Origin: Pontibacter oryzae
Lineage (GTDB): Bacteria > Bacteroidota > Bacteroidia > Cytophagales > Hymenobacteraceae
Direction of reading: 5' to 3'
Assembly (NCBI RefSeq): GCF_003576375.1
Contig: NZ_QWGE01000006.1
Coordinates: 67,704-91,703, forward strand
DNA length: 24,000 bases
Shown here one piece after another: positions 5,116 to 24,000 of the stretch. The translations under genes were made by a program, and so were the position numbers. Each line of letters opens with the position of its first letter. The stretch's first letter is position 1. Under the pieces are notes generated by a model. It did no database searches. It was not told where the DNA came from and worked only from the letters and a program-made list of their open reading frames with translations.

Positions 5116-5742
5116 ATGAGTAACGCAGCCTTCATTCAGATTCACCCCGAGACCCCGCAGGAGCGAAAAATACGGGAGGTGGCAGACATTCTGCGCAATG
5201 GCGGAGTGATTATTTATCCTACAGACACTATCTATGGGCTCGGCTGCGACATTCATAATGCCCGCGCCATTGAGCGTGTGTGCCAGATAAAAGGTGTGAA
5301 GCCAGAAAAAGTAAACTTGTCCTTTATCTGCTCTGACCTGACGCACATCTCTGACTATGCCAAGATAGACACGCCCACGTATAAAGTGATGAAAAAGGCG
5401 CTTCCGGGGCCGTTTACGTTTATTTTGGATGCCACCAGCAATGTCCCCAAGTATGCCAGCGCCAAGAAAAAGACGGTTGGTATACGAGTGCCCGATAATA
5501 AGATTGCGCTGGAACTGGTGAAAGAGCTTGGCAACCCCATCCTATCCACCTCTATCCGTGACGAAGATGAGGTGATAGAATATAGCACCGACCCTGAGTT
5601 GATCTACGAAAAGTATAGAAATCTTGTAGATGCCGTGATAGACGGAGGCTACGGCAATAATATCGCCTCCACGGTAGTAGACGCCTCCAACAACTTCGAA
5701 GTCCTCCGCGAAGGCGCCGGAGACATTGAGGAGTTTTTGTAG
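5116..5742 (+). CDS. tsaC: L-threonylcarbamoyladenylate synthase (YrdC/TsaC type, no Sua5 C-domain)
   Basis: 208 aa with IYPTDTIYGLGCD, KKKTVGIRVPD and GNPILSTSIRDEDE, the hallmarks of the YrdC domain. Confidence 0.85.
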   Translation: MSNAAFIQIHPETPQERKIREVADILRNGGVIIYPTDTIYGLGCDIHNARAIERVCQIKGVKPEKVNLSFICSDLTHISDYAKIDTPTYKVMKKALPGPFTFILDATSNVPKYASAKKKTVGIRVPDNKIALELVKELGNPILSTSIRDEDEVIEYSTDPELIYEKYRNLVDAVIDGGYGNNIASTVVDASNNFEVLREGAGDIEEFL

Positions 5743-5908
5743 TTAGAAAGTTGGGAAGTTAGAAGGTTAGAAAGTTTGGGAGGTAGAGAGTTTTGATTGT
5801 AGCTTGAGCTTATTTTCATTTATACTTCACAAGTATACCCAGCCCTTCTGAATCCCTGAGTACGTCACCTCTCCCTTTCTAACTTTCTAACTTCCTAACT
5901 TTCTAACT
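5742..5908. repeat. Composite inverted repeat: two opposed arrays of the 8-mer GTTAGAAA flanking a ~75-bp spacer
   Basis: The left arm (5742-5790) reads GTTAGAAA GTTGGGAA GTTAGAAG GTTAGAAA GTTTGGGAGGTAGAGAG. The right arm (5866-5908), reverse-complemented, reads GTTAGAAA GTTAGGAA GTTAGAAA GTTAGAAA GGGAGAGGTG. The spacer contains TATACTT-CAC-AAGTATA (5821-5837). The arms abut or overlap the stops of both convergent genes. Confidence 0.8.
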
Positions 5909-13037: not shown

Positions 13038-13418
13038 ATGAAAAAAATTTTACTACTCTTCATATGCTTACATCTATACTTTGTAGCCTCTGCACAAGAT
13101 GGAACTGACAGAACAAAGCTTGGGGTAGAGTATGCTAAGCGGGAATTAGCTGACGCACTAAAAAATAATTCACAGAAGCAGATACTTGTAGAGAAGGTTA
13201 TCAAGGATAAACCGACAGCTATTAGTGTGGCAGAAGAAATGCTGTTCAGTATTTATGGAAAAGAGAACATCGTTAGGCAGCGACCTTACGAAAGCCATTT
13301 GATTGACGGTTACTGGGTGCTTAATGGAACATTGCCGAAAGATTGGGTAGGAGGAACATTTCTTATAATAATTAACTCAACTGACGGCAAAGTAATCAAG
13401 TTGACGCACGGAAAATAA
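13038..13418 (+). CDS. NTF2-fold immunity protein (Imm-NTF2 / YbbC-YhhH-like), with signal peptide
   Basis: The motif series AISVAEEMLFSIYGKENIVRQRPYESHLIDGYWVLNGTLPKDWVGGTFLIIINSTDGKVIKLTHGK matches my recollection of the polymorphic-toxin Imm-NTF2 family. The N-terminal leader is MKKILLLFICLHLYFVASAQ. Confidence 0.7.
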   Translation: MKKILLLFICLHLYFVASAQDGTDRTKLGVEYAKRELADALKNNSQKQILVEKVIKDKPTAISVAEEMLFSIYGKENIVRQRPYESHLIDGYWVLNGTLPKDWVGGTFLIIINSTDGKVIKLTHGK

Positions 13419-13428
13419 GAACAACACC

Positions 13429-13495
13429 ATACAACAAAGTGCAGCACTTAGCCTCGGCTTTGCCTCGCCTATTGGCTGCACAAGTAACGTTGGTG
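13429..13495 (+). repeat. attC-like site 1 (67 bp)
   Basis: ATACAAC-AAA-GTGCAGC-[ACTTAGCCTCGGCTTTGCCTCGCCTATTG]-GCTGCAC-AAGTAAC-GTTGGTG. The inner stem is a perfect 7 bp, with outer AAC...GTT. Confidence 0.7.
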
Positions 13496-13515
13496 GTAAC
13501 TGAAATTATAGAAAA

Positions 13516-13947
13516 ATGTACGCAGACGACTATAAATCATGTGAAGAAACCTTTGTCACTCTACGAATTTTCTATGATGCTCAACCGCCAGACTATGTAT
13601 CTGATTTCTTGAAAATAACCCCTTCAAGGACACAAGTAAAAGGAGAAGAGCTGAGTAATAGAAGTAAGTATACTTCTAACGGTTGGTTTTTAAGTTCAGA
13701 AAGAGCAATAACTTCAAAGGATGCAAGAAGGCATATTGATTATCTTTTAGACCAGATTTTACCACTAAAAGAGAAGATTGACGAACTACAGAAAGGCAGC
13801 GCTCAAATTGACATCACTTGCTATTGGGTATCAAAAACCTGCAATGGCGGACCTACTTTATCGAATCAGCAGTTGAAAAAGTTAGCAGATTTAGGTGTGG
13901 ATTTCTGGTTCGACTTTTATTGCAGCGATGAGTTAGACGAAGTATAG
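13516..13947 (+). CDS. DUF4279 domain protein
   Basis: 143 aa. The pattern F.TLRIF...P..V...L.I.P....KGE......NGW.L.S......D....ID.LL..I.....I..L......IDI.CYW....NGGP.L......L...GV.FWFD.Y fits my recollection of the DUF4279 layout. Confidence 0.55.
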   Translation: MYADDYKSCEETFVTLRIFYDAQPPDYVSDFLKITPSRTQVKGEELSNRSKYTSNGWFLSSERAITSKDARRHIDYLLDQILPLKEKIDELQKGSAQIDITCYWVSKTCNGGPTLSNQQLKKLADLGVDFWFDFYCSDELDEV

Positions 13948-13967
13948 AAAAAGAAGAAAACAGCAGC

Positions 13968-14036
13968 CACCAACAAGGTGCATAATTTAGGCTTCGGCTT
14001 ACGCCTCACCCACATTATAGCACGAGACCGTTAGGT
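13968..14036 (+). repeat. attC-like site 2 (69 bp)
   Basis: CACCAAC-AAG-GTGCATAAT-[TTAGGCTTCGGCTTACGCCTCACCCAC]-ATTAT(A)GCAC-GAGACC-GTTAGGT. The inner stem is 9 bp with one bulged A, and the core fits GTTRRRY. Confidence 0.7.
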
Positions 14037-14055
14037 GCAACCGTAAGAAAGAAAA

Positions 14056-14511
14056 ATGACCTTTGATAAAATTTTTTCTGATTCATTTGACACGTTTAAA
14101 GTATTTGACAACATGGATGTGGCAAAAGCCAGTCATCAAGCTGGTAATACTCCAAAAAGCCTTTGGCAAATCTTAAATCATATAACAGTCTGGCAAGAAT
14201 TCCAATTGAACAAATTAAAAGGGTTAGACTCTACGGACATTGAAGAATTGGATACTTGGGAAAATGACCCTGTTGTTCGTGACCAAAGATTATTACAGCA
14301 AACTATCAATACTTTCAATAATCAGATTGAACAGATAAAAAATGAAATCCAAACATTATCTACTGAAAGTAACGATATAGAGAAGAAGTTAAAGATAGTA
14401 CAAGACCTATCAGTCCATCTATCATTTCACCTAGGAGAGATGGTTTTGCAAATGCGGCAAAACGGACATTATCCGATGCCGAGTGAAATGAAGGAATATT
14501 TAGCCAGCTAA
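14056..14511 (+). CDS. Small cytoplasmic protein, possibly DinB-superfamily four-helix bundle
   Basis: 151 aa. SLWQILNHITVWQEF and the C-terminal LSVHLSFHLGEMVLQMRQNG resemble the DinB His-containing helices (H...H.GQ-like). Similarity was judged by eye only. Confidence 0.4.
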   Translation: MTFDKIFSDSFDTFKVFDNMDVAKASHQAGNTPKSLWQILNHITVWQEFQLNKLKGLDSTDIEELDTWENDPVVRDQRLLQQTINTFNNQIEQIKNEIQTLSTESNDIEKKLKIVQDLSVHLSFHLGEMVLQMRQNGHYPMPSEMKEYLAS

Positions 14512-14521
14512 AAACGGCTGT

Positions 14522-14590
14522 ACCTAACCACGCATATACTCCACGCTTCGGCCGACGGCCTCGCGCACCGCCTATACTAGTCCGTTGAGC
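14522..14590 (+). repeat. attC-like site 3 (69 bp)
   Basis: ACCTAAC (fits RYYYAAC) ...CGCTTCGGCCGACGGCCTCGCGC... GTTGAGC (fits GTTRRRY). The inner pairing is weaker than in the other sites (TATA/TATA plus flanking pairs), but it shares the GCTTCGGC...GCCTCGC core with sites 1-2. Confidence 0.6.
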
Positions 14591-14646
14591 TTAATAAGAA
14601 TTTATAGACCTTCGTTGCCTGAAGGCAGAGGTGAACCATAGCACTA

Positions 14647-15048
14647 ATGCAAAAGCTTAGCAAAAAATCAAGGACTCTAATTGTAGCTGGTGCAGTTATA
14701 TTATTGCTGTTACTATACTTTCGAAGTATAAAATTAGAAAAGGGAAATAAAAAAGAACAAGCACAAGCAGTAGCAACAATAGCAGAATTGAAGGCAGGTT
14801 ATCGAGGTGGCATAACCATGACTTATAGATTCTTCTACAAAAACAAGAGGTACTCAGGAACAAGAAAAGTATTTATCAGCAGTTCATATATTAAAAGGTT
14901 CAAGGACAAACACTTTACAGTCGTCTTTAATAAACTTGAGCCAAGTAAAAACCGGCTGTTACTATTGGCTAAAGATTTCGAAGAGTTTGACGTGGCCTAT
15001 CCAGATAGTTTGGAATGGATAGAAGTTTTGAAAAGAAAGTCTCTATGA
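14647..15048 (+). CDS. Small N-terminally membrane-anchored hypothetical protein
   Basis: 133 aa. A single TM helix (TLIVAGAVILLLLLYF) is followed by a Lys/Tyr/Phe-rich beta-type domain. No family was recognised. Confidence 0.5.
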   Translation: MQKLSKKSRTLIVAGAVILLLLLYFRSIKLEKGNKKEQAQAVATIAELKAGYRGGITMTYRFFYKNKRYSGTRKVFISSSYIKRFKDKHFTVVFNKLEPSKNRLLLLAKDFEEFDVAYPDSLEWIEVLKRKSL

Positions 15049-16444: not shown

Positions 16445-18976
16445 TTGTCTGAGTTACTGAACTTTAATTACCCGCCAGAGCCAAGCACAGATCGCGTTAC
16501 GCTGTTTGCCGACGTGATACTTCCGCTGCCTTTGCCCAAGCTTTACACCTACCGCATCCCTTACGAGATGAACGACGAGGTGCTGGTGGGCGTGCGGGTA
16601 ATTGTACAGTTCGGGGCCAAAAAGGTACTAAGCTGCATCGTAGCCGACATCCACGAAAATGCCCCCGCCGATTACCAAGCCAAGTATATCCTGGATGTGC
16701 TGGATGATAAACCTATCATCACGAAACCGCAGCTGCGCCTTTTTAAATGGATCGCCGATTACTACATGTGCACGCTTGGCGAGGTGATCAATGCCGCACT
16801 GCCATCTGCACTTAAACTCAGCAGTGAGTCTCGGATACAGCTGCACCCGCATTACAACCCCGAGGAAGACGAGCTTATACTTGCCCCGCAGGAGGAAAAA
16901 ATCATTTTTGCGCTGAACAACAACCAAGCGCTAACGTTTACAGAGGTAGGCAACTTGCTGCAGCTCAAGAGCTACCATAAGTTTATCAAGTCGCTGATCC
17001 AGAAGGAGGCGATCATTATTTATGAGCAGGTAAGCGATAAGTTCTCGCCTAAAGTGGTAAAGAAAATTCGCCTTACAGAGCATTTTGTGCAGGAAGAAGG
17101 CTTACTGGAAGAGCTCTTTAACCAGCTCACGCCGCAGCCCAAGCAACTAGACGTGCTCCTGAATTACCTGCAACTCGTGCCTGTGCACCAGGACATTAAC
17201 CTGAACTACCGCGGCACCGAGAAAAGCGCCCTGACCAATAACCCGCACCTCTCCGCCTCCTCCATCAACACGCTCATTAAAAAAGGCGTGCTGGAGCAGT
17301 TCGACCAGATCGTGTCGCGGTTTCCGATGGAGCATGGCAACCAGCAGCTCCCTATGGCGCTGTCGGAGCACCAGTTGCAAGCCAAGGATGAGATCCTGGG
17401 CTTGTTTAAGGAGAAAGATACGGTGCTGCTGCATGGCGTAACCGGCAGTGGCAAAACCGAAGTATACATCGACCTGATAAAGCACGCCCTTGACAGCGGC
17501 GGCCAGGTGTTATACTTGCTGCCCGAGATTGCCCTCACAGCCCAAATCGTAACGCGCCTGATGAAGGTCTTCGGCGACAAACTGGGCATATACCACTCCA
17601 AGTTCTCCGACAACGAGCGCGCCGAAGTATGGCAAGGTATACTTTCGGGCCGTTTTCAGGTGATTGTCGGGGTGCGCTCGTCCATCTTTCTGCCTTTTCA
17701 TGATTTATCGTTGGTGATAATTGATGAGGAGCACGAGCCAAGCTACAAACAATACGACCCGGCGCCGCGCTACAATGCCCGCGAAACCGGTCTGATGATG
17801 GCGCACCTGCAAGGCGCTAAAACGCTGCTGGGCTCGGCCACGCCATCCATAGAAAGCTATTACAACTGCAAAACCGGCCGCTGGGGTTTGGTAAGTATGA
17901 CCAAGCGTTTCGGGGAGGCCAAACTGCCGGAAATTGAACTGGTGGATACGCGCCGCGAGCAGCAGCGCAAGAATATGCACAGTCACTTTTCGGCCAAACT
18001 ACTCACCGAGATCGAGGAGCGCCTCAAGCGCCAGGAGCAGGTAATCCTGTTCCAGAACCGCCGTGGCTACGCCCCGTTCATCAGCTGCGACGAGTGCTCA
18101 TGGATTCCGAAGTGTAAATTCTGTGCCGTAAGCCTGTCGTACCACAAGTATAACAATGAGCTGCGCTGCCACTATTGTGGCTACCACGAGCGCATGCCCC
18201 ACGACTGCCCCGCCTGCGGTGCCACCACGCTTAAAAGTATGGGTTTCGGTACGGAGAAGGTAGAAGACGAGCTGAAACTGATGCTGCCCAGCGCCGAGGT
18301 GCAGCGCATGGACCTGGACACGACCAAGAAGAAAAACAGTTACCAGCAGATCATTTCTGATTTTGAGAGCGGCCGCACCAACGTGCTGGTGGGTACCCAA
18401 ATGGTTACCAAAGGCCTCGATTTTGAGAATGTAAGTTTGGTGGGCATACTTAATGCCGATACCATCATCAACTTCCCGGATTTCCGGGCGCATGAGCGGG
18501 CGTACCAACTGTTTGTGCAGGTTAGCGGGCGTGCAGGCCGAAAGGGCAAGCCGGGTTCGGTTATCATCCAAACCCGCGACCCGCTGCAGCCAATTTTCAA
18601 TAAAGTACGCAGCAACGATTATTCTACTCTTTACGAGCATGAGATTGAGGAGCGCATGCGTTTCGGCTACCCGCCCTTTACCCGCATGATCCGGATTACG
18701 GTAAAGCATGCCGATGATAAAGCAGCCGAGAACGCCGCTATTGTGCTCACCAAAGACCTCTCTGATCGCTTAGGCAAGCAGCAGGTACTGGGGCCGGAGG
18801 TGCCCTATATCTTCAAGATCCGTAATCTGTTTCTGCAGGAAATCCATATAAAACTGCCCCGCGATTCCACAAACCTAAAAGCAGCCAAAAGCCAAATCGC
18901 GCAGGCCATCTTCAACCTGAAGCTGCTCGCTGATTTTAAGGGTATTCGGGTTGTGGCGGATGTGGACCCGGTGTAG
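16445..18976 (+). CDS. priA: Primosomal protein N' (replication restart helicase PriA)
   Basis: 843 aa. It has an N-terminal 3'-DNA-binding region (FADVILPLPLPKLYTYRIP), Walker A LHGVTGSGKTEVY, DEEH (IIDEEHEPSYKQ) and the Cys-rich zinc region (CDECSWIPKCKFC...CHYCG...CPACG). It uses a TTG start at 16445. Confidence 0.92.
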   Translation: MSELLNFNYPPEPSTDRVTLFADVILPLPLPKLYTYRIPYEMNDEVLVGVRVIVQFGAKKVLSCIVADIHENAPADYQAKYILDVLDDKPIITKPQLRLFKWIADYYMCTLGEVINAALPSALKLSSESRIQLHPHYNPEEDELILAPQEEKIIFALNNNQALTFTEVGNLLQLKSYHKFIKSLIQKEAIIIYEQVSDKFSPKVVKKIRLTEHFVQEEGLLEELFNQLTPQPKQLDVLLNYLQLVPVHQDINLNYRGTEKSALTNNPHLSASSINTLIKKGVLEQFDQIVSRFPMEHGNQQLPMALSEHQLQAKDEILGLFKEKDTVLLHGVTGSGKTEVYIDLIKHALDSGGQVLYLLPEIALTAQIVTRLMKVFGDKLGIYHSKFSDNERAEVWQGILSGRFQVIVGVRSSIFLPFHDLSLVIIDEEHEPSYKQYDPAPRYNARETGLMMAHLQGAKTLLGSATPSIESYYNCKTGRWGLVSMTKRFGEAKLPEIELVDTRREQQRKNMHSHFSAKLLTEIEERLKRQEQVILFQNRRGYAPFISCDECSWIPKCKFCAVSLSYHKYNNELRCHYCGYHERMPHDCPACGATTLKSMGFGTEKVEDELKLMLPSAEVQRMDLDTTKKKNSYQQIISDFESGRTNVLVGTQMVTKGLDFENVSLVGILNADTIINFPDFRAHERAYQLFVQVSGRAGRKGKPGSVIIQTRDPLQPIFNKVRSNDYSTLYEHEIEERMRFGYPPFTRMIRITVKHADDKAAENAAIVLTKDLSDRLGKQQVLGPEVPYIFKIRNLFLQEIHIKLPRDSTNLKAAKSQIAQAIFNLKLLADFKGIRVVADVDPV

Positions 18977-19010
18977 TAGCTTAAAACCATCAATTTTAAA
19001 TTACGCAATT

Positions 19011-19844
19011 ATGCCAGCCGATATATATCCTGCTAGTATAAAACCAAGGTTTGACTTCTGTGTCCTAATCCCGTGTTACAATAACTTCGATGGGTTAGTT
19101 CGATCCATCAACAGTATTGTTTATAGCACACACAGGTTTTGTGTAGTGATTGTAGATGATGGCAGCCAAATGCCTGTAACTGCAGCTGCCATTCATCAGT
19201 ATTGCGATCCCAAAATTGAAATATACACATTACGTCTGCCTTCAAATAGCGGGATAACTCATGCACTGAATATAGGCCTAGAATGGATCTCTGCTCACAT
19301 AGCAGTTAATTACATAGCTAGGCTGGATTGTGGGGATATCTGCTTAAAGGATAGATTTATTCTGCAAATTAAGTTACTCCAAGCAAACCCAAGTATAGGC
19401 TTAGTGGGCAGTTGGTGCACTTTTCAATCTAAGGATAAATCGGTAAGCTATCTATATACTACCCCAACGTATCATTCAGAAATATCCCGCGCTATGCACT
19501 ACAGAAACGTGTTTATACATCCTACGGTAATGTTTCGGGCAAATCTTTTAAAAGTTACGGGCTACTATCCACAGAACTATGATTATGTTGAAGATTATGC
19601 ACTATTTTGGGATATGCTAAAAAATTCAGACACTCAGATTATTAGTAAGCCCCTAGTAATTTGCGAAATTAACCCTGCTGGAATTTCTATGAGTAACCGC
19701 AGAGGCCAGCTTTTGGGTAGGATTCGTGTAGTATCACAGTATGGAACTAGATGGTCGCATAAAATGCTAGGCACGCTAAAGCTATGGATGCTCATGCTGC
19801 TGCCCTATAAGTTTTTGATAAAGCTTAAAGCAAATCTGAAATAA
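19011..19844 (+). CDS. Glycosyltransferase family 2
   Basis: VLIPCYNNFDGLVRSINSI...VVIVDDGS is the GT2 N-terminal signature, with ARLDCGD as the DXD-like motif. ATG 19011 is preferred over the ORF-track start at 18951, which would overlap priA. Confidence 0.8.
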   Translation: MPADIYPASIKPRFDFCVLIPCYNNFDGLVRSINSIVYSTHRFCVVIVDDGSQMPVTAAAIHQYCDPKIEIYTLRLPSNSGITHALNIGLEWISAHIAVNYIARLDCGDICLKDRFILQIKLLQANPSIGLVGSWCTFQSKDKSVSYLYTTPTYHSEISRAMHYRNVFIHPTVMFRANLLKVTGYYPQNYDYVEDYALFWDMLKNSDTQIISKPLVICEINPAGISMSNRRGQLLGRIRVVSQYGTRWSHKMLGTLKLWMLMLLPYKFLIKLKANLK

Positions 19845-20011
19845 AATTAACTGTCAGTTCCAAAACTATGTCGAAACACTAAAATTCTGATAAGAACAAA
19901 AAAAGTTAAGATTACCTACTTTATCTCATTAGAAAATTGCTACTTTTGTGTAAGTAAGGATTTCAGACTAAACAGAGCCTATTCTAAAATCTTTACTTTA
20001 TAAACAAACTT

Positions 20012-21118
20012 ATGATCATAGTACACGTTGTTGAGCCCTTTGCTGCGGGGGTCGCAGTTTTCGTAAAATCCCTTACGGAAACAATGCCTGAAGAGTTACA
20101 TATAGTAATTCACGGTGAGAGAAAGCATGTCATGTCGGCAAAAGAGGTCAAACTTACCTTCCCTAAAAATAACGTTCGCTTCATACACTGGAAATCTGCC
20201 CAGCGATCAGTTAATCCCAAAAAAGATTTACTGGCCTTAGGGGAACTATACAAAATTTTAAGAAGGCTTAAACAAAAAAAACTTGTAGATGCAGTTCATC
20301 TACACTCTTCTAAGAGTGGTCTTTTAGGGCGTGTTGCCTGCCGTATGGCTGGAATAAAGCAAGTAATTTACACCCCTAATGGTGCTCCATTTTTGTCTGG
20401 AGGGAATATGTTAAGCAACTTCGTTTACATGCAACTAGAAAGGTTCGGCAGTAAGGTAGCTGGGTCAGTAGTTTGTTGCTCTGTTTCAGAGCTCCAGGAA
20501 TATGAAAAAAGAGGAATCAAAGCATCCTATATAAGTAACGGTATTTCTTTGCCTAATGCATTAGAAGTAACCAAGCCCCAGAATGCTAAAAGTAAATTCC
20601 AGATTATTACAACCGGAAGAATCGAGGGACAAAAAAACCCACAGCTTTTCAACGAGATAGCCTCATATTTTGAAGAGTTTGATCAGTTTGAGTTTATCTG
20701 GGCCGGTGACGGAGTTGAGCGTTCTGTACTTACAGCAAGTAATATTAAAGTTACAGGGTGGGTTCCTTCTCAACAAATAAAGAAACTCGTCACGCAAGCC
20801 GATATCTACCTTTCTACATCTGTTTTCGAAGGGCTTTCATTTGGAGTGCTTGAAGCTTTAGCATTTAAAAAACCTGTATTACTAAGCCAATGTGTCGGTA
20901 ATAAAGATGTTGTAAAAAGAGGCATCAACGGCGACATATTTAAAAATCAAACCGAGGCTGTTGTCAAAATATTAAGCTATTTTAATAACCGCGACATGGT
21001 CAATGTGATGGGCCAGCACTCATACGATATTTGCAAATCGGAATTTGACATGTTCCGAAACTTCAGATTGTATAAAAATATTTATCAAGGCCTTCCTATT
21101 TTCTCTCTAGCCTCCTAG
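20012..21118 (+). CDS. Glycosyltransferase family 4/1 (GT-B fold)
   Basis: 368 aa. The start is N-terminal IIVHVVEPFAAGV. The C-terminal half carries EGQKNP, a Glycos_transf_1 pattern with the EX7E-like FEGLSFGVLEALA, and KPVL...G. Confidence 0.8.
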   Translation: MIIVHVVEPFAAGVAVFVKSLTETMPEELHIVIHGERKHVMSAKEVKLTFPKNNVRFIHWKSAQRSVNPKKDLLALGELYKILRRLKQKKLVDAVHLHSSKSGLLGRVACRMAGIKQVIYTPNGAPFLSGGNMLSNFVYMQLERFGSKVAGSVVCCSVSELQEYEKRGIKASYISNGISLPNALEVTKPQNAKSKFQIITTGRIEGQKNPQLFNEIASYFEEFDQFEFIWAGDGVERSVLTASNIKVTGWVPSQQIKKLVTQADIYLSTSVFEGLSFGVLEALAFKKPVLLSQCVGNKDVVKRGINGDIFKNQTEAVVKILSYFNNRDMVNVMGQHSYDICKSEFDMFRNFRLYKNIYQGLPIFSLAS

Positions 21119-21139
21119 GCGATTTATATTATTTACTTT

Positions 21140-21508
21140 ATGAGTACATTACTTTTTCAAGAATTCAGCTCTCCCACTGATTCTTCAATGGAGAATATCC
21201 ACAATACTTTAGAGTTGATTCAGCAAAAGCTGCTACAAGAGATCGAAGCAAAACAATTCACAATTAAAACCCTCGAAAATAAGTTAGGGAGGCTCGAATC
21301 TATCATAGACGGCAACCAACAACTAATTAGTACGCTTTACGCAGAACTGAATCAAAACCAAAGATCAACGGAAGGTAACAGGCAGTTAGTAAACAAGTTG
21401 CTCAATGACATTGATCGCTTACAACAGGATATAGAGTGGTATAAGCGAACTTATGAGAACAGAAGTATGATAGGGATTTTAAGAGAGAAGATATTTGGAA
21501 GAAAGTAA
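21140..21508 (+). CDS. Small coiled-coil protein with a WY(K/R)RTYE-type C-terminal tail
   Basis: 122 aa with a heptad-rich, Q/L/E-rich sequence. The last ~30 aa (DIEWYKRTYENRSMIGILREKIFGRK) are paralogous to the C-terminus of the next gene. Confidence 0.6.
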   Translation: MSTLLFQEFSSPTDSSMENIHNTLELIQQKLLQEIEAKQFTIKTLENKLGRLESIIDGNQQLISTLYAELNQNQRSTEGNRQLVNKLLNDIDRLQQDIEWYKRTYENRSMIGILREKIFGRK

Positions 21509-21511
21509 AGC

Positions 21512-22846
21512 ATGATACCTAAAATTATACACTACTGCTGGTTTGGAGGGGCTGAAATACCCTTAGAGTATCAAAAGTATATTGCAGAATGGCAAGAGCT
21601 TCACCCTGAATGGGAGATAAAGAGATGGGATGAGCTTAACTTTCCATTAGATAACACTTATATAAAAAACGCAATTGAATCAAGCCATTGGGCTAATGCA
21701 AGTAACTATGCTAGGCTAAGAGTACTGGAATTATATGGCGGAGTTTACTTAGATACCGATGTTAAACTCTTGAAACCAATTGATGCACTGTTAAACGACA
21801 AGTGCTTTATTGGTTTTGAAGAGGGGGATGCGGATAACAACACATTTTGGGTGAACAATGCTGTGATGGGCTCTGTAGCATCTCACTCTTTAATTTCTAG
21901 ATGCGCTGCGAAAATAGTTTCCGATTTTGATGGCACAGAACGAGCAAATGAATCTGCACCTAAACTTGTTACAAAGCTACTGATTGAAGAATATGGCTTA
22001 AAAAATTATGGCCGTCAGCAGTTATCTGATGGAATCAAGTTATACAATAAAGAAGTCTTTTACCCTATTCCTTGGAACTACGCTAAGAACGTGCGGAATT
22101 ATGAGCAGTTCCTATATTCCGATACCCTTGCAGTGCACATGTGGGGAAGGACATGGTTTAGCAGAGAAATGATGCTAGATATGATCGATAATTTGCAAGA
22201 GTGGTCAGGTGAACAGCAGCAACTTATCACAGACCTCAAAGCCAAGCTAGAGCAAGGACAGATAGTTGAGGCAGCTATAAATCAGCTCCAGAATAACCTT
22301 AGTGCTGATAACAACAAAGTATTTACTACACTTCAAGAGCAACATACATTAGTATGTGCTAGTCTTCAAAAGTTTAATGAGGTATACACTTCACAAAACG
22401 AGGAGGCATCTTTGCTGCGCCAAACACTCCATGACAGACAAGAAGAGATATCTCTGCTGCACCAAAAACTACACGATAGACAGGAGGAGATATCTCTGCT
22501 ACACCAAAAACTACACAGCAGACTAGAAGAGATATCTCTGCTGCACCAAAAACTACACAGCAGACAAGATGAAATATCTTTATTGAGCCAGAAACTTCAT
22601 GGCCAACAGGGGGAAATATCTCTGCTACACCAAAAATTACATGACAAACAGAAGGAGATATCACTTCAAGATCAAAAACTGCATGACAGGCAGGAGGAAA
22701 TGGATACTTGCCAGTCTCATTTAAGCCAAGCGTTATCTGCAATAGATAGCAAGGAAAATGACATACAGTGGTATAGAAGAACTTATGAGCAGAGAAGCTT
22801 GATAGGCATTCTAAAGCAAAGAATCACTAGCTATTTCAGAGGATAA
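21512..22846 (+). CDS. GT32-type (Gly_transf_sug, DXD) glycosyltransferase fused to a long repeat-built coiled coil and a conserved tail
   Basis: The N-terminus IPKIIHYCWFGG...W..LHPEWEIKRWDE...NYARLRVLELYGGVYLDTDV is the sugar-binding DXD glycosyltransferase signature. Residues ~297-394 are 14-aa tandem repeats. The C-terminus is DIQWYRRTYEQRSLIGILKQRITSYFRG. Confidence 0.8.
   Translation: MIPKIIHYCWFGGAEIPLEYQKYIAEWQELHPEWEIKRWDELNFPLDNTYIKNAIESSHWANASNYARLRVLELYGGVYLDTDVKLLKPIDALLNDKCFIGFEEGDADNNTFWVNNAVMGSVASHSLISRCAAKIVSDFDGTERANESAPKLVTKLLIEEYGLKNYGRQQLSDGIKLYNKEVFYPIPWNYAKNVRNYEQFLYSDTLAVHMWGRTWFSREMMLDMIDNLQEWSGEQQQLITDLKAKLEQGQIVEAAINQLQNNLSADNNKVFTTLQEQHTLVCASLQKFNEVYTSQNEEASLLRQTLHDRQEEISLLHQKLHDRQEEISLLHQKLHSRLEEISLLHQKLHSRQDEISLLSQKLHGQQGEISLLHQKLHDKQKEISLQDQKLHDRQEEMDTCQSHLSQALSAIDSKENDIQWYRRTYEQRSLIGILKQRITSYFRG
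22400..22693 (+). repeat. Seven in-frame 42-bp tandem repeats (14-aa unit, consensus EEISLLHQKLHDRQ), followed by a degenerate eighth
   Basis: Units start at 22400, 22442, 22484, 22526, 22568, 22610 and 22652. Units 2-4 are nearly identical at the DNA level (gaagagatatctctgctgcaccaaaaactacac...). Confidence 0.9.
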
Positions 22847-22878
22847 AGTCAAAAAGCAAAATAGTAAATATTACATAC

Positions 22879-24000
22879 GTGGATAATTTTTTAAGTAATC
22901 GAATCGCTAAAACCAATTATTACTATAGCGAAGAGGCACACCACCTATTTCAGGTTCAAAAACTAAATAAAAGTAATTTTGCTGAGAATGGTAAAAACTT
23001 AACCATTAGTCTGCTCAGTTTAAATAGAGTTAAACTCACTATTAAACTATTGCTTTCAATTGAGTATTACTTTCCAAACTATCAAGGAGAAGTACTCATT
23101 ATAGACAATGGATCTGCGGTTGATCAAATTACTCAACTAATAGAATTCTCTAAAACTTCTTCTTTAAAAATTAATATTAAAGAGTTGGGAGAAAACCACG
23201 GAGTTGGGAGAGCTAGAAACATTGCAGCTCAAGAAATAAGTACCGACTGGATTATGTTTATTGATAACGACATGTATTTCATAAACAATCCTTTACCTGC
23301 TATCAAAAGTGCAATTGAACTTTTAGGCTGTAATTTTTTAAATCTTCCTTTAATCAATTATGATAATAAAACGGTATTTGCCTTAGGCGGAGCTTTATTT
23401 CCAACATCTCTTGCTGATGGATATTTTATAGGTGGAGGTAGTAGCTTTAATTTTAGGCAAGAAAAAGAAGCTGACCAAATAAATCTTCAGGCCCCATTTT
23501 TATCTGATTTCTTATTTGGGGGGGCTAGTGTAGTTAATAGGCATGCATTCAACCAAATGGGTGGGTTTGACTATGATATGTTTGTGGGGTTTGAAGACAT
23601 TGACTTTTCCCTAAGATTATATAACAGCGGAATCAAGATCGGCAATATTCACAAGTTTACATTAATTCATAACCATAAGCCGCCAGTAAACGAAAATGAC
23701 CTAATAGCTGAAAAGAAACGATTTAGTAATAGCGTAATTAAACAATCAGCTAATGCATTCAAACAAAAAAATGGACTTATAGTTTACGACTCCAATACAG
23801 AAGAATGGTTGCGTGAAAGGGAAAATGAATTGAATATTACTTCCTCCCAACTCATCCAAAACAGAGAGGAAAAGCCTAAAGTTGCACTAGTTGTTGATGC
23901 ACAAAATTGGGCATTTCATAATATTGCAAAAAATATAGTTAAAGAACTTTCAGCTAAATATGATTTTGAAATTTTATTTCAATCCAGTTATCTCGGTGAG
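22879..24000 (+). CDS. Glycosyltransferase family 2, multi-domain, 3'-truncated by the window end
   Basis: This ORF is not in the supplied ORF track because it has no stop in the window. I translated the frame from 22879 (GTG; the preceding in-frame stop is at 22828) to 24000 with no stop. It reads LTISLLSLNR...VLIIDNGSAVD...GENHGVGRARN...FIDNDM...GGFDYDMFVGFEDIDFSLRL, then a second region begins (KVALVVDAQNWAFHNIAKNIVKEL). Confidence 0.75.
   Translation, partial: MDNFLSNRIAKTNYYYSEEAHHLFQVQKLNKSNFAENGKNLTISLLSLNRVKLTIKLLLSIEYYFPNYQGEVLIIDNGSAVDQITQLIEFSKTSSLKINIKELGENHGVGRARNIAAQEISTDWIMFIDNDMYFINNPLPAIKSAIELLGCNFLNLPLINYDNKTVFALGGALFPTSLADGYFIGGGSSFNFRQEKEADQINLQAPFLSDFLFGGASVVNRHAFNQMGGFDYDMFVGFEDIDFSLRLYNSGIKIGNIHKFTLIHNHKPPVNENDLIAEKKRFSNSVIKQSANAFKQKNGLIVYDSNTEEWLRERENELNITSSQLIQNREEKPKVALVVDAQNWAFHNIAKNIVKELSAKYDFEILFQSSYLGE

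Follow-up and report, generated by a model that had tools for sequence, protein, structure and literature searches.

A GT32 glycosyltransferase on a repeat-built coiled-coil stalk in Pontibacter oryzae, a candidate chain-capping enzyme whose stalk may measure chain length

The DNA analysed here, hereafter the window, is a stretch of 24,000 nucleotides (nt) from Pontibacter oryzae (NCBI RefSeq assembly GCF_003576375.1, contig NZ_QWGE01000006.1, positions 67,704 to 91,703 of the forward strand). It contains a gene for a protein, hereafter the GT32 protein, in which a glycosyltransferase (GT) domain, a long coiled coil built partly from tandem repeats, and a short conserved tail follow one another. 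A first-pass annotation, made by a model from the letters of the window, had described an open reading frame (ORF) with this order of parts and had interpreted its product as a molecular ruler for polysaccharide chains. The ORF was found as described, and its product does consist of a catalytic domain, a coiled coil and a conserved proximal tail in that order. The features of the locus are collected in Table 1. A further ORF on the opposite strand, 22374..22742 (-), 122 amino acids (aa), crosses the repeat array; nothing supports it as a gene, and it remains open probably because it overlaps the array.

Table 1. Features of the GT32 locus, in window coordinates (pLDDT, predicted local distance difference test score).
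Feature	Position	Strand	Description	Basis
GT32-coiled-coil-tail protein	21512..22846	+	444 aa, ATG start	ORF list, Pfam, AlphaFold2, homologue family
GT-A catalytic domain, GT32-type, retaining	21512..22156	+	aa 1-215	PF04488, PF04572, pLDDT mostly >90, Foldseek
DXD motif D81-T82-D83	21752..21760	+	GAT ACC GAT	alignment of 40 sequences
Coiled-coil stalk	22163..22789	+	aa 218-426	AlphaFold2 helices, 3.5-residue periodicity
Seven tandem 42-bp / 14-aa two-heptad units	22400..22693	+	aa 297-394	Tandem Repeats Finder, unit table, identity matrix, heptad map
Tail tag	22763..22843	+	aa 418-444: IQWYRRTYEQRS, kink, then LIGILKQRITSYFRG	29-tail profile, AlphaFold2
Small partner protein	21140..21508	+	122 aa; long helix plus tail tag (WYKRTYENRSMIGILREKIFGRK)	ORF, AlphaFold2
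GT2 glycosyltransferase	18951..19844	+	opens the low-GC glycan cluster; overlaps the last codons of priA; position kept in relatives	PF00535
GT4 glycosyltransferase, probable adaptor-stage enzyme	20012..21118	+	syntenic in relatives	PF00534, PF13439
Large GT2-first glycosyltransferase, start only (window end)	22879..24000	+		frame translation, PF00535, PF10111

The GT32 protein's N-terminal part was recognized by two Pfam families, Gly_transf_sug (PF04488) at aa 19-99 (E 3e-13; 50.8 bits, cut-off 23) and Gb3_synth (PF04572) at aa 124-215 (E 6e-8; 33.4 bits, cut-off 22.3). Both aspartates of the DXD motif, D81 and D83, were invariant in the alignment of 40 homologues, and AlphaFold2 modelled this part as a GT-A domain. 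A Foldseek comparison indicated that the closest solved folds are those of retaining GT-A enzymes, namely YeGT, PaTox, SetA and Och1 (9n3s). The agreement among Pfam, the invariant aspartates and the predicted fold confirms the earlier proposal of an N-terminal DXD catalytic domain of GT32 type; on these sequence and model grounds the domain is assigned to CAZy family GT32.

The catalytic domain is followed in the AlphaFold2 model by helices at aa 218-361, 369-426 and 430-443. The stalk comprises ~209 residues and would measure ~31 nm if fully extended. Hydrophobic residues over aa 218-426 showed a periodicity peak at 3.5 residues, and none of 5000 shuffled sequences reached the observed power (p<2e-4). 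The non-repeat part alone, aa 218-296, also showed the 3.5-residue periodicity (p = 0.009, shuffles), and a single heptad register could be followed from ~260 to ~430, continuing into the tail. The predicted helices across aa 218-426 together with the heptad periodicity uphold the claim of a coiled coil of ~200 aa that is helical and not disordered. In the literature an extended coiled coil is the marker of chain-terminator systems, in which the terminating enzyme always lies at the distal end (PMC11231755). In the modelled GT32 protein, an extended coiled coil lies between the catalytic domain and the end proximal to the membrane or polymerase.

Part of this stalk is the array of tandem units, in which Tandem Repeats Finder reported a 42-bp period at 22408-22662 with 6.1 copies, 76% match and a score of 249. 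Each 14-aa unit places I, L, L and R at the core positions a, d, a and d, respectively. Units 1-3 were mutually identical at 35-39 of 42 nt and the outer units at 24-34 of 42 nt, and the longest exact direct repeats in the array were 34 bp (lag 84) and 22 bp (lag 42). The first-pass annotation had spoken of seven near-perfect 14-aa repeats; the number seven stands, and near-perfection is confined to three units. Its estimate of ~2 nm per unit agrees with the calculated value of 14 x 0.1485 = 2.08 nm.

We found a natural length variant of this array in the closest relative of the GT32 protein, P0001, which is encoded on the 2736-bp Logan contig L001 (SRR14875200). P0001 is shorter than the GT32 protein by exactly 14 aa and 97% identical to it where the two align, and comparison of the DNA revealed a clean, in-register and in-frame gap of 42 bp within the array, with the remainder of the gene ~96% identical; L001 carries six units, as compared with seven in the window. 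This variant, from one short-read contig, suggests that the stalk may change its length unit by unit, and the predicted change of copy number in exact two-heptad steps is borne out to the extent of one relative differing by one unit. Among 5.8e9 protein clusters, P0001 was the sole close relative. The GT32, small and GT4 proteins had no exact match in the contig index, and scans of genome contigs with the family alignment and of metagenome contigs with the single protein returned nothing above 47% identity among the matches listed.

The difference between six and seven units could also be non-functional, that is, an assembly collapse or a neutral indel in an array that is an evolutionary relic. 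The origin of the variant from a short Logan contig, a single close relative in so many protein clusters, two large collection scans with no further close relatives among the matches listed, and exact repeats of 34 and 22 bp that can confuse k-mer assemblers would all be in keeping with this explanation, whereas the L001 units carry substitutions of their own and have no long identical k-mers in common across the junction, the contig crosses the array without a break in the reading frame and has an indel of exactly one in-register unit, and recurrent recent repeats elsewhere in the family indicate that such change is common. We regard a non-functional difference as rather unlikely.

The array holds 11 histidines, at the e and b heptad positions, and not the ~14 regularly spaced ones counted earlier. 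Histidine accounts for 5.7% of the coil as compared with a family median of 2.1%, and two histidines are replaced by tyrosine in P0001. The histidines are a lineage peculiarity and are not conserved. The suggested metal or pH sensitivity thus found no comparative support, and metal- or pH-sensing histidines were discarded as a supported idea.

Homologues with the same GT32-coil-tail layout, 341-723 aa in length, are frequent among Bacteroidota and occur in Chitinophagaceae, Flavihumibacter, Niastella and metagenome-assembled genomes of Bacteroidia. Both ends of these proteins are conserved, and the spacer between them measures 109-493 aa. Of 53 family members, 10 had recent internal repeats, whose periods are 7, 14, 18, 28 or 35 aa. 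Exact coil length was kept in some pairs despite divergence, with 413 and 413 aa at 36% coil identity and 192 and 192 aa at 39%. Among pairs with diverged coils, 4 of 23 differed by no more than 5 aa, as compared with 1.1 expected by permutation (p ~0.02); the length-matched pairs retain their coil length through 60-80% sequence turnover. A constraint of heptad phase on spacer length was rejected, as no preference modulo 7 or 3.5 was detected (Rayleigh p ~0.9). In one pair, P0023 and P0031, which are 74% identical in the GT core, the coil spacers of 446 and 223 aa differ exactly twofold; this ratio, together with the 35-aa internal repeats in P0023, suggests a duplication of the whole stalk. 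A separate group of ~465-aa proteins from Saprospiraceae and other metagenome sources (P0051, P0054, P0055, P0058, P0059 and P0061) has the GT32 domain fused to a C-terminal domain of ~220 aa, with no coiled coil. This domain carries a GxGxG-like motif (GAGEGYYV) and resembles an S-adenosylmethionine-dependent methyltransferase, and the fusion is possibly a glycosyltransferase paired with a cap-modifying enzyme.

The tail that closes the GT32 protein, hereafter the tag, has the motif WYxxTYExRS..G..K, i.e., W-Y-x-x-T-Y-E-x-R-S-h-h-G-h-h-K (h as written in the motif). In the AlphaFold2 model and the heptad map, the WYxxTYE part closes the long helix, with Y421 on a core d position and Y425 on a core a position. 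A kink at R-S (427-429) and the terminal helix follow, the latter being hydrophobic and basic, with a mean net charge of +2.3 over 29 tails. A profile of 48 positions from these 29 tails was scored against 1.84e9 representative proteins and matched 172 proteins at E<=1e-3, of which 69 reached E<=1e-10. The 172 proteins came from an exhaustive search; a word-indexed search with the profile gave 56 candidates and returned 7 small proteins. The description of the tail as conserved and probably amphipathic was thus correct in its first half, as these 172 proteins attest, and failed in its second: an amphipathic tail was rejected, since the hydrophobic moment of the 29 terminal helices was not above that of shuffles. 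No match to the tag was found by profile search in Pfam, NCBIfam or PDB chain sequences, and the only taxon name recovered among the tag-bearing clusters was 'Bacteroidia bacterium'.

Many of the matches are proteins of 70-150 aa that resemble the small partner protein encoded at 21140-21508. In other bearers, the tag ends a coiled coil whose far domain is a class-I methyltransferase, a sulfotransferase, GT31, GT2, GT4 or GT32. Giant fusions have the order methyltransferase, sulfotransferase or GT32, then coil, tag and GT2, with GT4 added in several, and the tag lies at the junction between coil and polymerase. Three tandem tags occur in P0128 and P0129, and two proteins, an 809-aa bidomain glycosyltransferase of locus L003 and a 316-aa protein of locus L007, begin with a short helix plus the tag. 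In the sulfotransferase-coil-tag proteins P0128 and P0253, a conserved domain with no Pfam match (VQVFWSKED…RFDIGNQIGFVNIHHILVQ) lies between the sulfotransferase and the coil, and a similar domain follows the methyltransferase of P0129. The extra domain of P0128 and P0253 might be a module like the carbohydrate-binding module (CBM) noted in K. pneumoniae O7 ORF6 (PMC11231755). Two further hits, P0206 and P0260, were set aside as false positives; they are Sel1/TPR-like repeat proteins that score on the profile through a recurring 'AIEWYKKAYE', a segment strikingly like the start of a Sel1 repeat.

The stop codon of the small gene ends 3 nt ahead of the GT32 start codon. Its product, RIJ34021.1, is annotated as 'hypothetical protein', and AlphaFold2 predicts a helix at 14-108, a kink, and a helix at 110-119, with pLDDT >96 over most of the long helix; this geometry of long helix, kink and short helix matches that of the GT32 tail. 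Homologues of the small protein were found upstream of the GT32 gene in six loci, adjacent to it in L001, L002, L005, L007 and L169 and with two genes between in L006. The L001 homologue is identical to the small protein across the 112 residues visible there. One family member, P0006, has two tags in one chain, and the small gene is absent from its locus. In Rufibacter soli, of the same bacterial family, the GT32 orthologue (L169, 10001-10891) is a protein of 296 aa with a coil of ~80 aa and no tag, and a tag-bearing small protein is encoded directly upstream with a 4-nt overlap. The double tag of P0006 where the small gene is missing, and the tag-less GT32 protein of R. soli where the small protein is present, suggest that the small protein may supply a second tag or anchor.

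The glycan cluster to which these genes belong has a GC content of 0.34-0.39, as compared with 0.47-0.53 in the flanking genes. Exact matches of its proteins assign the window to P. oryzae; besides the small protein, they include ClpB (RIJ34011.1), PriA (RIJ34018.1) and the GT4 enzyme (RIJ34020.1). Five related loci (L002, L003/L004, L005, L006 and L169) have a common order, namely GT2, GT4, small protein (87-129 aa), GT32-coil(-tail), two bidomain glycosyltransferases (~790-810 and then ~714-723 aa), Wzm (ABC2_membrane, ~265 aa), Wzt, and, encoded on the opposite strand, a Wzy_C ligase-like gene; L003/L004 have neither the GT4 nor the small-protein gene. The window contains the first five genes of this order directly after priA, and the gene cut by the window end is probably, from its sequence, the counterpart of the 800-aa bidomain GT2+GT4 polymerase-type glycosyltransferase of R. 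soli. As judged from gene content, the order of the related loci is characteristic of an O-antigen-type pathway that is ABC-transporter-dependent and ligase-linked. In the Logan contigs L167 and L168, whose PriA belongs to the same 90%-identity cluster (its named members are all Pontibacter), priA is followed instead by genes for a Na/sulfate symporter, a DinB protein and a peptidase M14. Since other genes follow priA in these Pontibacter relatives, the glycan cluster at 18951-24000 is a variable island that differs between strains or species.

Taken together, these results lead us to propose that the GT32 protein is a candidate chain-capping enzyme of an ABC-transporter-dependent O-antigen-like pathway and that the length of its stalk sets the length of the chain, a reading to which we give a probability of roughly 0.55. 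In the proposed mechanism, an uninterrupted heptad coiled coil of ~31 nm would carry the retaining GT32 domain at its far end, and the tag would hold the base of the stalk at a membrane-bound chain-extension complex of the two bidomain glycosyltransferases encoded downstream. A lipid-linked chain growing at the membrane would reach the GT32 active site only once it is long enough to span the stalk, the enzyme would then add an alpha-linked sugar that the polymerase cannot extend, and stalk length would thereby fix the modal chain length. Part of the stalk would have arisen by tandem duplication of the 42-bp two-heptad unit, one unit gained or lost amounting to 2.1 nm. We infer the capping activity, the docking of the tag to the membrane or complex, the parallel oligomeric state of the coil, and the read-out of coil length as glycan length.

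That the distal domain adds a cap to the non-reducing end is suggested by its position, as the same slot also holds methyltransferases, sulfotransferases and GT31. Methyl groups are classic cap chemistry. We favour the capping model because the order of parts is that of WbdD, because fused relatives resemble WbbB and O7 ORF6, and because cap-type enzymes occupy the distal slot. The spacer range of 109-493 aa between conserved ends, the length-matched pairs, the recent internal repeats and the one-unit variant also speak for the model, as indirect evidence that coil length sets modal chain length. The ruler interpretation of the first-pass annotation is in this way partly supported, by comparison.

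Several observations weigh against this reading. The AlphaFold2 monomer shows a helix break at 362-368 (GQQGE, pLDDT 44) at which the chain folds back, and the stalk may accordingly be an antiparallel hairpin in the model. The fourth core position in each repeat is Arg, Gln or Lys in the heptad map, which weakens the case for a canonical coil. The terminal helices had a mean hydrophobic moment of 0.29 (z = -0.27 against shuffles, 29 helices), and since the terminal helix is not amphipathic, membrane binding by the tail is putative. The R. soli orthologue has only its ~80 aa of coil and no tail, and the sole copy-number variant comes from a 2.7-kb short-read Logan contig, in which repeat collapse is possible. 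PDB sequence searches with the GT32 protein, the tail profile and a methyltransferase-coil-tail relative gave no match to WbdD or WbbB, so that any relationship to them would be one of analogy and not of common descent. The window ends at 24000, ahead of any wzm or wzt. In the related loci, Wzt is 244 (L002), 248 (L003), 244 (L005) and 244 (L006) aa long with PF00005 only, and 197 aa in L169; these lengths imply a nucleotide-binding domain without a CBM. Every characterised terminated system has a CBM on Wzt that checks the cap (PMC11231755), and this mark of the terminator class is lacking from the related loci.

The main alternative explanation is that the protein is a scaffold component and not a ruler, with the GT32 domain adding an in-chain, branch or adaptor sugar, the coil and tag oligomerising and tethering the complex, and coil length drifting neutrally. 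The tag is found on several components of one locus, including the N-termini of the polymerase-type proteins of L003 and L007, and a Wzt without a CBM resembles that of the non-terminated K. pneumoniae O2a type (PMC11231755). The 4.5-fold variation in coil length, with no heptad-phase preference, would suit neutral drift, as would an R. soli orthologue that works, if at all, with a very short coil and no tag. However, with a rigid and parallel coil, an enzyme held ~30 nm from the membrane could not reach a growing end close to the membrane, the methyltransferases and sulfotransferases that share the distal slot are end-modifying and not polymerising enzymes, and coil length is exactly conserved in some pairs despite 60-80% sequence turnover. 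We consider the scaffold explanation unlikely. It is highly improbable that the enzyme glycosylates a protein or lipid with the coil as a generic spacer or oligomeriser, as its best fold and sequence matches among toxin-like glycosyltransferases (TcdA/B, YeGT, PaTox and SetA) might suggest, because the gene is embedded, and apparently translationally coupled, in a polysaccharide locus that has Wzm/Wzt and ligase-like genes in five relatives, because the protein has no secretion or toxin-delivery domains, and because capsule and O-antigen loci commonly encode stand-alone bacterial GT32s, going by the names of homologues.

The capping model can be extended to the tag and the small protein. The WYxxTYExRS-hhGhhK motif appears to sit at the C-terminus of putative cap enzymes, at the N-terminus of polymerase modules, and in the small coil-plus-tag protein. 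It might be an address tag that assembles the chain-extension complex in ABC-transporter glycan loci of Bacteroidota, with the small protein anchoring in trans or titrating docking sites and setting the stoichiometry of terminator to polymerase, and with the 42-bp repeats making O-antigen modal length heritably adjustable in 2-nm steps, in the manner of a contingency locus. This extension is speculative, and we think it distinctly unlikely to hold in full.

Three other parts of the window are recorded here. Between the convergent Sua5 and lipid-A acyltransferase genes, at 5741-5908, lie two inverted arrays of an 8-bp unit, with ~4.5 copies of GTTAGAAA and ~4.2 copies of its complement. Their arms are ~45 bp long and enclose a spacer of ~80 nt; the predicted hairpin, at -69 kcal/mol (z = -7.5 against shuffles), could act as a bidirectional terminator or represent a small repeat element. 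A low-GC patch (0.375) at 13038-15048 contains small genes, among them those for an NTF2-fold immunity protein (PF15631), for DUF4279 and for a DinB_2 protein, as well as a 133-aa ORF without a match; related Pontibacter contigs hold other genes there, and the patch looks like an orphan immunity-gene islet. At the window edge, 20-2098 is an ORF of 692 aa with a TTG start and no Pfam family at E<=1e-5.

If the capping model is correct, a GT32 hexosyl-type cap and a large Bacteroidota family would be added to the set of rulers, the tag would locate the membrane-proximal end of rulers in genomes, and the small partner would be a protein without counterpart in existing models. The rule that terminators accompany a CBM-bearing transporter would also be challenged. 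A stalk of countable 14-aa units with a natural one-unit variant provides material for testing the ruler idea.

Coiled-coil rulers are the accepted means of polysaccharide length control in ABC-transporter pathways. To our knowledge, experimental examples are few and come from Enterobacteriaceae, namely WbdD, WbbB, and Klebsiella O4 and O7, whose caps are methyl, phosphomethyl or 3-deoxy-D-manno-octulosonic acid (Kdo). The principle is thus known; what appears new in the literature searched, although a prior description is possible, is that a GT32 domain occupies the terminator slot, together with the shared tag, the small partner, the Wzt without a CBM, and the stalk of countable repeats with a one-unit variant.

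WbdD of E. coli O9a and K. pneumoniae O3 and O5 is, like the GT32 protein, a polypeptide apart from the multi-module polymerase, and it works in an ABC-transporter pathway, as the GT32 protein probably does. Its coil of ~20 nm serves as a ruler (PMC3482155, PMC5082667, PMC11231755), and the GT32 protein has the same order of parts. In WbdD, insertions and truncations in the trimeric coil of ~200 Å raise or lower modal chain length (PMC5082667). The catalytic domain in the window is a GT32 glycosyltransferase, in contrast to the methyltransferase or kinase of WbdD, and the short conserved proximal tag is a different one, accompanied by a small coil-plus-tag partner gene and a coil derived partly from recent tandem repeats. 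The Wzt of the relatives has no CBM.

The terminator of WbbB (K. pneumoniae O12 and Raoultella terrigena) is also a glycosyltransferase, a GT99 beta-Kdo transferase distal to the coiled coil. Like WbbB and K. pneumoniae O7 ORF6, the relatives P0244, P0254, P0128, P0129 and P0236 combine terminator, coil and polymerase in a single chain (PMC11231755). In the window, by contrast, the candidate terminator and the polymerase modules are separate genes, and GT32 is a retaining GT-A family; the junction tag was in no PDB chain sequence by profile search, and the relatives are without a CBM-bearing Wzt. K. pneumoniae O4 ORF7, a GT137 alpha-Kdo terminator, differs in fold, in donor and in the predicted CBM on the O4 Wzt, and its descriptions include no coil built from repeats, no tail tag and no small partner. 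Stand-alone bacterial GT32s and fungal Och1 have a homologous catalytic domain (PF04488, PF04572, DXD, GT-A fold), and many of the stand-alone bacterial enzymes (245-270 aa) likewise end in a basic and hydrophobic C-terminus. Those enzymes are without a coil, whereas the GT32-coil-tail family has ~100-490 aa of coil before the C-terminal end.

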